This document shows positions 33,558 to 35,036 of a DNA stretch of 35,321 nt, in pieces (the stretch's first letter is position 1; each line of letters starts with the position of its first letter). The notes beneath the pieces were generated by a model. It saw only the letters and a list, made by a program, of their open reading frames with translations. It ran no database searches and was not told the DNA's origin. This DNA is from a virus. Taxonomy: Duplodnaviria; Heunggongvirae; Uroviricota; Caudoviricetes. The position numbers and the translations under genes were made by a program. The stretch lies in the IMG/VR virus record IMGVR_UViG_648276647_000008. One strand, given 5' to 3'.

Positions 33558-34021
33558 AGGGTTTTCGTCATGGTTAGCGACTTTGCGGCGGTTTAGAAAC
33601 TGACCATTAAAGTAAATGCAAACGATGATCTGATGATGGTAGCGGCCTAAGAAGCCAGACGCCACGGGGTATGAGTCGTCCCCCGTCAAAAAATCGACCG
33701 CAGAGTGTCCCCGTCTGTGTATTAGGGAACGGGGAGGCACAACAGGTAAGGGCGCTGGTGTGATTAACCAGATGAACGAGAAGGGGCCATCTGTTGGTCA
33801 GCGTCCTTTCCTGTTGCGTCTTCTTTTCAGCGTAACAGCGGTGCTTAACAGCACTTTGGGTACAGTTCCACGAATTTACGGGTATATCCCGTCATGCTGA
33901 AAGCGCTAATCACGCTGGAAGCCAGGGTTATGCATCCCCTGTTACCGAATTGCAGCCAGGGCGCGGTGCGCCGAAAAGCATACGGAGGTGGAAGCCCTCG
34001 CCGGAGACGTACCCGGCAAGT

Positions 34022-34097
34022 GATGGTGTAGCTCAGCGGTTAGAGCGGTTGACTGTTAATCAACGGGTCGATGGTTCAAATCCATCCACCATCGCCA
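34022..34097 (+). tRNA. tRNA-Asn (anticodon GUU)
   Basis: Manual fold: acceptor GATGGTG/CACCATC, anticodon loop CTGTTAA, T-arm GATGG-TTCAAAT-CCATC, encoded CCA. Confidence 0.8.
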
Positions 34098-34099
34098 AT

Positions 34100-34175
34100 G
34101 CCGGTTTAGCTCAGTTGGTAGAGCGCCTGCCTTGTAAGCAGGATGTCAGCGGTTCGAGTCCGTTAATCGGCACCA
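34100..34175 (+). tRNA. tRNA-Thr (anticodon UGU)
   Basis: Manual fold: acceptor GCCGGTT/AATCGGC (one G-U), D-arm AGCTCAGTTGGTAGAGC, anticodon stem-loop CCTGC-CTTGTAA-GCAGG, T-loop GGTTCGAGTCC, encoded CCA; close to E. coli tRNA-Thr as recalled. Confidence 0.8.
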
Positions 34176-34183
34176 GCACAACA

Positions 34184-34258
34184 GGTAAGGGTATTTTGCG
34201 ACGTCGGAGATCGCCGAACTTGGCAGAGGGTTCGAATCCCTACGAAGTACCCTTACCG
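34184..34258 (+). other. Degenerate tRNA-like element (T-arm-like GGGTTCGAATCCC inside a 7-bp closing stem)
   Basis: GGTAAGG...CCTTACC closing stem and a consensus-like T-loop, but too little sequence for both D and anticodon arms and extra nucleotides between T-stem and acceptor; cannot be folded into a canonical cloverleaf. Confidence 0.3.
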
Positions 34259-34596
34259 TTGTGATGAAGTGCAGCTCTTAGAAGCAACCAGAAGATAAGC
34301 ATCTGGCTTCACAACATAAACCGCAGGAACGACCAATAAACGGTAGTCCGTATGGAGAACACCCCGTTGAGGAAGAGGCCTGGCCGGAACCGTAACCGGC
34401 ACTACAACGTTGAGAACATTGGCGTAACGGGGTCATATCCCAATCTATGAATAAATGTTGCGTTGCCGCGTGACAACCAGTGTTCTCAACATTGTGGTGA
34501 ATGCACAGGCTGATGTGCCGCAACTACAGTAGTGCGCGCTTTGCGGGGCTTGCTACAACCCTGTGTCGGAGTTCAGCACCGACCACCACAATCACT

Positions 34597-34683
34597 GGAG
34601 AGTAGGGAGCATGGTGCTCAAGCGGTCTTGAAAACCGTCCCATAGCGCAAGCGATGATGGTTCGATTCCATTACTCTCCGCCA
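34597..34683 (+). tRNA. Class-II tRNA-Ser-like gene (anticodon UGA) with shortened D-arm
   Basis: 87 nt; acceptor GGAGAGT/ACTCTCC with G1-C, G2-C, A3-U and discriminator G plus CCA; anticodon stem-loop GCGGT-CTTGAAA-ACCGT as in E. coli tRNA-Ser(UGA) as recalled; 17-nt variable arm; T-arm GATGG-TTCGATT-CCATT; D-loop only ~5 nt. Confidence 0.55.
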
Positions 34684-35036
34684 GCGCAACGTTAAGAGTA
34701 TTTGGCTAATTAAGCGAATGCCGGAAGCAGAACCGGATCAACAAATGCGTACAGGCGTCATCGCCGCCCAGCCAGCCAAGTGCTCTTACCATTGCGGTGA
34801 ATGCGGCTAAGCGCACGCGGGGAAATGGTTATATCAGTCCATTCATTTCTCCTAGTGTGTTGAGCCTGATTTATACTCGGCGTGTCAAAGCTCTGACGGG
34901 AGCCATGCAGTCTGATTTTCTCCGTGGGTACGAGCCCGTAAACAAGCAGTTTTCGCATGGTTTCCGCCTTATCTAAACCCGTATTGTTGACTGAATTTCC
35001 TGGTGAAAGTTCGCACACTAGGTAGGGATAAATAAG

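Follow-up and report, generated by a model that had tools for sequence, protein, structure and literature searches.

Between dmt (open reading frame (ORF) 30758-33346) and the place held in relatives by tciA, the viral sequence IMGVR_UViG_648276647_000008 of IMG/VR carries a cluster of tRNA genes embedded in highly structured non-coding DNA. The whole sequence of 35,321 nucleotides (nt), called the window below, was analyzed. The question that this locus raises is whether the DNA around the tRNA genes is what remains of a larger tRNA array or encodes RNA structures of its own. An earlier note had offered three answers, the decay of a tRNA array, its rearrangement, or structured RNAs other than tRNAs. 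The structured RNAs are borne out by covariation and by a bias of G·U pairs toward the sense strand, rearrangement holds in a modular sense, and decay is not supported. The reading that we favor, and consider fairly probable, is that the region is a ban operon leader with three functional tRNAs, in which four long hairpins (A to D) and a three-way-junction RNA (motif X) serve as modular RNA processing or punctuation elements.

Results

The Leader of a C1-repressed ban Operon

Over the 1.7 kb around the region, identity is 95-97% to P7, to P1 and to a large number of P1-like elements, and by this homology the window is a P1/P7-type phage-plasmid. A C4 antisense RNA of P1 type and a hok/sok locus, both recognized by Rfam, are also present in the window. 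In phage P1, the operator Oban is annotated as a divalent C1 operator, and the next features in the P1 record are a 'dicF-like region', trnA and trnT; the P7 record has the operator controlling the tRNAs and ban. Because the P1 and P7 records place the operator, the promoters and trnA/trnT here, the region is, judging by these annotated homologues, the untranslated leader (about 1.5 kb) of the C1-repressed ban operon, read on the + strand. The window shares with P1 (NC_005856; P7, AF503408) the dmt-tciA position, the operator and promoter, and 97% identity from 33302 to 34590. It differs from P1 in adding hairpin D and a tRNA-Ser of P7/D6 type, which take the place of an unrelated P1 segment of about 150 nt with a hairpin D', and in having the end of the leader interrupted by an IS110-family element.

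A Family of Long Hairpins on the tRNA Strand

Hairpins A to D (Table 1) have stems of about 20-23 bp, with a 5' arm beginning (G)CACAAC(A)GKTRAG and a 3' arm ending in CTYAMCRTTGYG, followed by the conserved 3' flank RTGAAKGC; their tips, of 25-80 nt, are mutually unrelated. Two repeats listed by the earlier note turned out to be arms of these hairpins. The imperfect inverted repeat given as 21 nt exists, with its extent corrected to 34400-34422 against 34477-34499 (23 nt, 87% complementary), and constitutes the arms of hairpin C. The direct repeat given as about 35 nt exists at a reduced length, 34479-34504 against 34779-34804 (26 nt, 85% identical), and represents the 3' arms of hairpins C and D; the string TTGYGRTGAATGC shared by its copies occurs twice, against 0.17 occurrences expected. 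Beyond that list we found hairpins A and D and an exact 16-nt repeat, GCACAACAGGTAAGGG, at 33737-33752 and 34176-34191, which forms the 5' arms of hairpins A and B. No member of the hairpin family was found in the 35-kb window outside this region. Elsewhere the family occurs in SSU5-like phage-plasmids (four copies in the SSU5-like E. coli plasmid L016) and in pJN2-26, and Sashavirus carries it in a non-coding region of 480 bp. Hairpins of the family start right after the CCA of tRNA-Thr and tRNA-Ser both in the window and in L016, and right after that of tRNA-Asn in pJN2-26.

Sense-strand hairpins were collected from the named relatives and from IMG/VR loci, which gave 40 distinct sequences among the matches listed. 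These contain 23 distinct arm pairs, which were counted by a custom script (MAFFT misregistered the bulged against the unbulged classes). Pairing is kept at 95.7% of the 460 positions in these arm pairs, and three to six pair types are found at eight positions, counts that overstate the independent events, many of the hairpin sequences being closely related. When the arms were folded on both strands, the tRNA-sense strand was the more stable one in 37 of the 40 hairpins, by a mean of 3.9 kcal/mol, because G·U pairs, and not A·C mismatches, fall on the tRNA strand; the arm duplex of hairpin D, for instance, reaches -30.1 kcal/mol in sense and -25.6 kcal/mol in antisense. This sense-strand bias points to a function of the hairpins as RNA.

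A search with Rfam 15 (E ≤ 10 over 33300-35100, and E ≤ 0.1 in the loci L014-L016) yielded no credible match for hairpins A-D, only sub-threshold matches to microRNA and transfer-messenger RNA (tmRNA) models. An RNase III site is expected to offer at least about 20 bp of mostly Watson-Crick double-stranded RNA in a transcribed region, and the stems of about 20-23 bp, lying in an annotated ban operon, have this character. Precedents for such processing are the lambda N leader, the R sites of phage T7, the rrn operons and the action of RNase III on the T4 tRNA cluster. The hairpins resemble the T7, rrn and T4 stems in presenting about two turns of double-stranded RNA in a polycistronic precursor beside stable RNAs; they differ in that their sequence is conserved across the family (CACAAC/GUUGYG at the base, GUGAAUGC as the 3' flank) and that their tips are large and variable, and their cleavage is a prediction. 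Phage T4 also encodes, within its tRNA cluster, the stable RNA species 1 and 2 (rnaC/rnaD). Like these, the hairpins would be structured RNAs other than tRNAs among phage tRNA genes, hairpin B here presenting a T-arm stacked on a long stem; the two sets have no sequence relation, and processed spacer RNAs of the window are a prediction. Readings of the arms as integron attC-like or C1-operator-like sites were dropped; the core motifs do not fit, and the arms also occur in phages unrelated to P1.

Hairpin B and the Supposed Degenerate tRNA

The element that follows tRNA-Thr had been described as a degenerate tRNA with a consensus T-loop and a perfect 7-bp closing stem that cannot form a full cloverleaf. 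The T-loop, GGTTCGAATCC at 34229-34239, is indeed there, and a cloverleaf is not; the 7-bp stem gave way to one of about 21 bp with a bulge. The pattern GGTTCRAWTCC has three matches in the 35-kb window, all in this region, against 0.11 expected by chance. The fold of hairpin B has z = -4.5, and none of 200 shuffles folded as well. Within it, GAGGGTTCGAATCCCT makes up a 4-bp T-stem and a perfect T-loop, and one nucleotide separates the 3' strand of this T-stem from the 3' strand of the long stem; with its 3' strands nearly continuous, hairpin B therefore resembles the 'top half' of a tRNA placed on an over-long acceptor stem.

ARAGORN found no tRNA in hairpin B at its default or 95% thresholds. 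At the 80% threshold it returned a poor 'tRNA-Tyr' at 34157-34251, overlapping tRNA-Thr, together with false positives on the opposite strand. When the tip was compared by local BLAST with 3.6 Mb of phage loci, nothing but T-arm stretches of 13-18 nt from assorted tRNAs matched it. The allele of the window, B1, is also found in P1, D6 and SJ46; at this place P7 and Ro157 have an allele B2, with the same stem and a short, unrelated tip free of any T-loop, and RCS47 carries B1 and B2 in tandem. A tRNA pseudogene at 34177-34263 is not supported, since there is no residual cloverleaf, the likeness is confined to a T-arm-like 16-mer, and a T-loop-free allele exists. By this comparison of alleles, hairpin B is a variant of a conserved hairpin module and not a decayed tRNA. 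The T-arm could derive from a tRNA fragment that was captured, or could mimic a T-loop functionally.

Motif X, a Conserved Three-way Junction

Motif X consists of three helices. Helix P1 has 9 pairs (34258-34266 with 34307-34315) and opens into the 5' junction GAAGUGCAG; helix P2 is a 3-bp hairpin with a CNNNGA loop, followed by AA; helix P3, CCAG/CUGG, bears the conserved loop AAGAUAAGCAU and is followed by C. The invariant junction and loop nucleotides are GAAUUGCAG, CAAC and GAAGAUMAGC.

The X segment was first linked by BLAST to Sashaviruses and P22-like phages, and in phage epsilon34 it lies between PL/nutL and an N-like gene. A 16-mer scan of IMG/VR then gave an alignment (A4) of at least 29 distinct copies, in which 92% of the cells are paired and both sides have changed in 7 of the 9 pairs of helix P1 and in 2 of the 3 pairs of helix P2. 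The covariance model R1 finds exactly one copy of X in the window. A further alignment (A7) comprises at least 18 more divergent copies, retrieved independently and found with R1. Here 95.7% of the cells are paired, and 12 of 16 pairs have changed on both sides, including 3 of 4 in helix P3, where CCAG/CUGG is replaced by CUGCG/CGCAG, CCGUG/CGCGG or CUGUG/CACAG; as A7 was fitted to the model and many X sequences are related, these covariation counts are generous. X has no family match in Rfam (E ≤ 10 in the window, E ≤ 0.1 in L014-L016). Both motif X and the hairpin family appear to be undescribed and unannotated.

The X segment is present in 599 of 5426 complete E. coli genomes (about 11%), and 607 of its 624 places are on plasmids and lack annotation; in about 600 E. 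coli plasmids annotated by RefSeq, X is not covered by any gene call. Among species-representative genomes, X is almost restricted to Enterobacterales. Salmonella phage Sasha (L015, 1857-2338) has, in its structural gene region, a 480-bp non-coding stretch with one hairpin of the family, then X, and a terminator at the end.

In prophage contigs, X ends 29-33 nt before ORFs whose arginine-rich starts are of the N-antiterminator type, one of them a close lambda-N homologue. The leader of this homologue contains lambda-type boxA and boxB followed by X, and the flanks GGCUUUGG ... CCAAAGCUAACUGACAGGAG are homologous to the lambda N leader. Lambda itself has, in the stretch from nutL to the ribosome-binding site of N, a long-stem three-way structure that is reportedly sensitive to RNase III and that we take to be an element modulating N translation. 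X stands at the same place in the prophage N leaders, after boxA/boxB and about 30 nt before the start of N, and there a long basal stem carries it, between homologous flanks, and it likewise forms a three-way junction. The two differ in that the tip sequences are unrelated and X is smaller, with an invariant loop and junction nucleotides; moreover, the X of the window is not beside an N gene or a nut site, and cleavage of X by RNase III is suggested by analogy.

Other identities of X were considered and rejected. A hammerhead or other ribozyme does not fit, the UGAUGA-like string not being conserved (UGAGGA and UGGUGA in relatives) and no ribozyme family matching. The boxA-like GCUCUUU in helix P2 of the window is not conserved either, and a boxA/nut reading was rejected because helix P2 covaries freely and the N leaders have a separate boxA/boxB upstream of X. 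An X-like element before tRNA-Asn (GAAUUGCAG at 33948) reached only 4.5 bits with R1 (E = 2.3), and its fold is no better than that of shuffles.

Two further domains of the leader are X-like. The strand AUUGUGGUG, which closes X2 with CACCACAAU, is also the 3' arm of hairpin C and can be used in either way. The closing helix of X2 shows a compensatory change in plasmid L016 (GUGAUG/CAUCAC) and is kept around a different interior in P7; R1 matches X2 partially and weakly, with 8.2 bits. X3 is closed in P1 by GUUGCGGUG/CACCGCAAC and ends there about 30 nt before the tciA start codon, with a weak R1 score of 19.7 bits. Because these scores are weak, X2 and X3 are presumptive relatives of X. Taken together, the next functional unit begins 2-30 nt after the end of X or of an X-like domain; this unit is tRNA-Ser in the window, tciA in P1 and the N gene in lambdoid prophages.

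A Compact Phage tRNA-Ser (UGA)

The 87-nt class-II tRNA-Ser of the earlier note, with its CTTGAAA anticodon loop and short D-arm, was recovered by ARAGORN at 34597-34683, and its identity positions are invariant among its homologues. It has UGA in a CUUGAAA loop, a variable region of 20 nt, an A at position 8, and a D-arm with a stem of 4-5 bp and a loop of 4-5 nt (AUGG(U)). The serine anticodon, the long variable arm, G73 and the G1-C72, G2-C71 and A3-U70 pairs expected of a tRNA-Ser are all present. The U8, 3-bp D-stem and large D-loop with G18G19 of a canonical class-II tRNA-Ser are absent, and canonical phage tRNA-Ser(UGA) genes from IMG/VR, with U8 and GCCGAGYGG-type D-loops, are unlike the window gene. 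Its best Rfam match is tRNA-Sec, which scores 42.9 bits, under the gathering score of 47, and outscores the general tRNA model.

BLAST relatives of the gene in 364 phage records belong to rV5-like coliphages, to T5-like and T4-like Klebsiella phages, and to Streptomyces and Pseudomonas phages. All of them have the compact D-arm, with a 4-5-bp stem and a 4-5-nt loop containing GG, and position 8 is usually A, not U. Covariation was analyzed on 21 phage homologues from these same groups and from IMG/VR contigs. The cloverleaf pairs 95% of the cells, and 16 of its 21 pairs, including all four of the D-stem, have changed on both sides; none of 500 shuffles reached the observed covariation, and slid controls were also far off. 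G1, G2, A3, U81, C82, C83 and G84 (numbering of the window tRNA; G73 is among them) are invariant in 21/21 homologues. G1, G2 and A3 with their partners, G73 and the long variable arm form the identity set of the E. coli seryl-tRNA synthetase (SerRS). Because the class is conserved, the compact D-stem covaries and the SerRS identity positions are invariant, the gene is not degenerate; by these signs it is a bona fide, functional-looking member of a widespread phage class, and it is not new.

A class of this kind, the (8/4) tRNA-Ser with a tRNA-Sec-like D-arm, a long V-arm and G73, has been described in phages by Mukai et al. 2017 (Nucleic Acids Res 45:2776, PMC5389517). The gene of the window agrees with these tRNAs, and with allo-tRNAs, in its serine anticodon, long variable arm, G73 and a D-arm of long stem and tiny loop as in tRNA-Sec. 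It likewise lies in a phage tRNA cluster, and it may also have the eighth acceptor pair (A8-U65) with a 4-bp T-stem. The difference lies in the carriers, which here are cultured, classical coliphage-type elements (P7, D6, SSU5-like plasmids, rV5-like phages) and there metagenomic phages. One point weighs against a firm assignment to the 8/4 architecture: A8-U65 and G49·U65 are both possible, and the covariation, in the 21 sequences and two structure counts, does not discriminate 8/4 from 7/5. The pair 8:65 is AU in 14 sequences and CG, GC and UG in one each, with two unpaired; the pair 49:65 is GU in 14, CG in two, AU and GC in one each, and unpaired in three. Only 8/4 fits L156, L166 and Percastrophe_b, only 7/5 fits L124 and L144, and the clade with the window fits both.

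P7 (where it is unannotated), D6, the SSU5-like phages Cyrano and pJN2-26 and plasmid L016 carry the tRNA-Ser; P1, RCS47, SJ46 and Ro157 lack it. In D6 (MF356679), where it is annotated with a UGA serine anticodon and an amino acid not called by tRNAscan-SE, the same gene stands at the same position after Asn and Thr and differs from that of the window at 2 of 87 positions, one in the D-stem and one in the variable arm, neither of substance. Another group of phage tRNA-Ser(UGA)-like genes, in the IMG/VR loci L018-L061, has an acceptor/T branch longer by one nucleotide and a long D-stem (e.g. TCTAGCCGGGGATGCTAG), and may represent, from its sequences, another irregular tRNA architecture.

tRNA-Asn, tRNA-Thr and Codon Use

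That tRNA-Asn and tRNA-Thr fold canonically is upheld by the ARAGORN calls and by the Rfam tRNA model, whose gathering score of 29 bits is far exceeded by both genes (74.5 and 72.9 bits). Comparison with P1-like genomes, which had been proposed as a check, identifies the two genes with trnA and trnT of P1; they have been known since the P1 genome paper and are not new.

Codon use was compared between the 24 long ORFs of the window and a 50-kb sample of E. coli K-12 that was analyzed alike. ACA accounts for 26% of the Thr codons in the window and 11% in K-12 (p = 5e-12), UCA for 20% and 10.5% of the Ser codons (p = 1e-6, about 2-fold), and AAU for 55% and 45% of the Asn codons (p = 0.004). In this comparison, akin to a second check that had been proposed for the codons of these three amino acids, AAU, ACA and UCA are all enriched. 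AUA, which a P1-type tRNA-Ile further downstream in relatives reads, stands at 20% in the window against 5.5%. This codon use fits a decoding role of the tRNAs. With the conserved identity positions, the excess of UCA gives indirect support to a tRNA-Ser that would be charged by SerRS and used in translation.

Table 1. Features of the leader region in the window, in order of position
Feature	Position	Strand	Evidence and remarks
C1 repressor operator Oban and ban promoters	33331-33370	+	20-nt inverted repeat; homologous to P1-annotated Obanab and P1ban/P2ban promoters (P1 locus L001, 2520-2565), whose annotated place maps to window 33321-33366
P1-annotated 'dicF-like' region	33461-33562	+	P1 misc_feature (L001, 2660-2761) mapped via colinear alignment; ends in intrinsic terminator
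Hairpin A, CACAAC...GUUGYG family	33731-33827	+	Minimum free energy (MFE) -50.2 kcal/mol, z = -6.3
tRNA-Asn (GUU), P1 trnA	34022-34097	+	ARAGORN; Rfam tRNA 74.5 bits; annotated in P1, P7, D6
tRNA-Thr (UGU), P1 trnT	34100-34175	+	ARAGORN; Rfam tRNA 72.9 bits; annotated in P1, P7, D6
Hairpin B, allele B1	34177-34263	+	Stem of about 21 bp, one bulge; tip with T-arm-like GAGGGTTCGAATCCCT (34226-34241); directly after tRNA-Thr CCA
Motif X, three-way-junction RNA	34258-34315	+	Lies between hairpins B and C; 85.6 bits with covariance model R1 (E about 1e-25)
Hairpin C	34400-34499	+	23-bp stem; MFE -45 kcal/mol, z = -5.2; family member by arm sequence
Multi-branch domain X2	34491-34594	+	Fold; closed by AUUGUGGUG/CACCACAAU, AAUGCA junction; ends 2 nt before tRNA-Ser
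tRNA-Ser (UGA), compact D-arm, '(8/4)'-type, encoded CCA	34597-34683	+	ARAGORN; 87 nt; annotated in D6
Hairpin D	34685-34797	+	-45.8 kcal/mol, z = -2.9; directly after tRNA-Ser CCA
X3, 5' part of further domain	34790-34853	+	Cut by insertion; P1 sequence L001 3948-4072; P1 homology stops at 34853
IS110-family insertion sequence	34854-35321	+	ORF 35037-35276 against DEDD_Tnp_IS110 weak, E = 0.0019; nearest relatives annotated IS110 family (RNA-guided) transposases

Mosaicism of the Leader and Neighboring Features

The differences among P1, P7, D6, RCS47, SJ46 and Ro157 start and stop at hairpin arms. SJ46 is without 34448-34775, so that the 5' part of hairpin C is joined to a D'-type 3' arm; in P1, 34591-34780 is replaced; Ro157 has an insertion at 34400/34401; and in RCS47 hairpin B is duplicated. 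The window itself resembles P1 as far as 34590 and P7 from there on. A block of X2 and tRNA-Ser (34491-34683) is nearly identical to one of plasmid L016 (2640-2835), the two families being otherwise unrelated, and P7 has the same tRNA-Ser behind a different X2 interior. The 16-nt repeat of hairpins A and B brackets the tRNA-Asn/tRNA-Thr pair, and recombination between the GCACAACAGGTAAGGG copies could delete or transfer this pair as a cassette. A tRNA-Tyr is found at nearby positions in Ro157 and L016.

Homology to all relatives ends at about 34854, at the insertion in the last domain of the leader. The non-coding left end of the inserted IS110-family element measures about 180 nt (34854-35036); IS110 elements carry a guide ('bridge') RNA in their left end. 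Its transposase ORF, 35037-35276, has an apparent frameshift near an A-run at about 35218, and coding continues in frame from 35221. The insertion sequence has no near match in PLSDB, and in E. coli genomes it has matches of 54-75 nt in five chromosomes only.

Rfam also places an isrK-like RNA immediately ahead of the C4 antisense RNA in immunity region I (12828-13039) and the sok antitoxin RNA at 16863-17037; such features are typical of P1-type elements. The dmt methyltransferase gene is variable in length among close relatives: the ORF of the window has 862 aa, compared with about 1095 aa for the annotated homologues of RCS47 and Ro157, about 754 aa for that of P1 and about 672 aa for that of P7. 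The 'dicF-like' label comes from the P1 record only, and the Rfam DicF model has no match there at E ≤ 10.

Discussion

The comparisons show the modules of the leader to be conserved structures at the RNA level, on the tRNA strand, as far as covariation and strand bias can tell, and from these we infer that they work as RNA processing or punctuation elements. In the scheme that we favor, de-repression would lead to a single + strand precursor with Asn-GUU, Thr-UGU and Ser-UGA, tRNAs that would supply decoding for codons used about 1.5-3 times more than in E. coli K-12 (AAU, ACA, UCA). RNase P would cut the 5' ends of the tRNAs, and 3' trimming would free them. The hairpins, of about two turns, and the X-bearing stem would be cut by RNase III or would be entry or stop points for other nucleases. 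The cuts would separate the tRNAs from the spacer RNAs and from the tciA-ban mRNA, and would set and stabilize the 5' end of this mRNA. The dense structure would keep the untranslated RNA of 1.5 kb compact, and possibly shielded from Rho, and the repeated arms would double as recombination points at which tRNA/spacer cassettes are shuffled between phages.

Besides the generosity of the covariation counts, several points weigh against this scheme. Only about 170 nt past the ban promoters, a terminator scan detected a strong intrinsic terminator (33530-33556), made of an 8-bp stem and a run of seven T; it separates promoter from tRNAs, so that read-through or a second promoter is needed, and a promoter scan found no second promoter between terminator and tRNAs. 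With a terminator at this place, one expects the leader RNA to be short, or else read-through into the tRNAs to be regulated. The role given to RNase III is argued from the length of the stems and from a position like that in the lambda N leader. A stable hairpin flush with the CCA could hinder exonucleolytic 3' trimming, and the strands shared by the hairpins and X/X2 also fit a conformational switch. In Cyrano the Asn, Thr and Ser genes are contiguous and the inner modules are lacking, and the modules are therefore dispensable for the tRNAs. Finally, an E. coli-like host of the window is an assumption.

The decay of a tRNA array, with hairpin B a pseudogene, tRNA-Ser degenerating and the spacer made of eroded tRNAs, would account for the consensus T-loop and 4-bp T-stem inside hairpin B, for the additional tRNA-Tyr near the cluster in Ro157 and L016, and for the sub-gathering scores of the Ser gene with the Rfam tRNA and tRNA-Sec models, as well as for its missing amino-acid call in D6. 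However, a large phage tRNA-Ser class keeps the compact D-arm as its regular form, with compensated base changes and no variation at the identity positions, and hairpin B matches no tRNA in the 3.6 Mb of phage loci beyond its 13-18-nt T-arm and has a T-loop-free allele at the same position on the same stem. The rest of the spacer consists of conserved, covarying structures other than tRNAs, and the only ARAGORN cloverleaf in hairpin B, at the 80% threshold, overlaps tRNA-Thr and comes with antisense false positives; we therefore regard decay as very unlikely. Less likely still is that the region encodes the minus-strand proteins Plp (putative lipoprotein) and Upl and that its RNA structures are incidental. 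Both genes (34150-34530) are annotated in the P1, RCS47 and JL22 records, but they are antisense to the 3' end of tRNA-Thr, hairpin B, X and hairpin C, that is, to a tRNA gene, which plp overlaps, and to covarying RNA structures. A stop codon interrupts the plp frame in the window and in Ro157, and P7, RCS47 and SJ46 have the frame broken or replaced; neither plp nor upl has a match in Pfam, and RefSeq, as noted, calls no gene over X. This suggests that plp and upl of P1 are mis-annotated, insofar as frames and homology can indicate.

Two other explanations accept the modules and interpret them differently. If they were palindromes at the DNA level, resembling miniature inverted-repeat transposable elements (MITEs) or prone to recombination, that shuffle cassettes and have no RNA role, one would understand that the arms are near-palindromic and contain CAACGTTG, that close relatives differ in the number of copies and in the alleles that they carry, the breakpoints lying at the arms (B1, B2 or both; D or D'; the SJ46 deletion between the 3' arms of C and D), and that modules occur in unrelated phage types (P1-like, SSU5-like, Sashavirus), the inner ones being missing from Cyrano. 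The IS110-family element beside hairpin D, of a class that often targets repeats, would also agree. Against this stand the G·U pairs, which favor the tRNA strand in nearly all of the hairpins, the common orientation of all copies with the tRNAs and X, the tips, which differ completely while the stems covary, unlike MITE copies, and the strands that X and X-like domains with RNA-type covariation share with the hairpins. We consider an exclusive DNA role unlikely, and mobility at the DNA level may be a second property of modules that process or punctuate RNA. A regulatory switch, in which X and the hairpins form mutually exclusive pairings that govern read-through, the access of Rho or translation (of N, or of tciA-ban), possibly through a protein or ligand, seems to us quite unlikely. 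It would make use of the GUUGUG 3' arm of hairpin B, which is also the 5' strand of helix P1 of X, of the hairpin C 3' arm shared with the X2 closing helix, and, in epsilon34-type N leaders, of CUUUGG, which can pair either upstream or downstream of X; the invariant nucleotides GAAUUGCAG, CAAC and GAAGAUMAGC look like a specific binding site, X lies about 30 nt from start codons, and a terminator precedes the tRNAs. No terminator alternative or sequestered Shine-Dalgarno alternative has been demonstrated, however, and X also stands before non-coding units in the window and in SSU5-like plasmids. We know of no ligand or protein partner of X. We tentatively suggest, with a good deal of doubt, that X may be an undescribed class of cis-acting RNA in Enterobacterales phages that binds a protein or ligand, or is a ribonuclease entry site, and controls N and ban-type early operons (P1-/SSU5-like); with the hairpins it would form 'punctuation cassettes' that move with tRNA genes between unrelated phages.

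The tRNA part of this locus is known biology, and its unusual tRNA-Ser belongs to a described class. The presence of this irregular tRNA-Ser in tractable coliphage-type plasmids (P7, D6, SSU5-like) nevertheless provides a natural tRNA of its kind that is easily studied in E. coli. The spacer is an assembly of conserved RNA modules absent from databases and is neither junk nor decay, and the repeated hairpin arms are suggested to be joints for the exchange of tRNA cassettes between phage families. X is common in enterobacterial phage-plasmids and in prophage N leaders, where it occupies the position of the RNase III control site of lambda. Should X and the hairpins prove to be elements of processing or control, they would account for the release of tRNAs and mRNAs from the long untranslated leaders of phages, and would offer a handle on the regulation of N genes in families other than that of lambda N.

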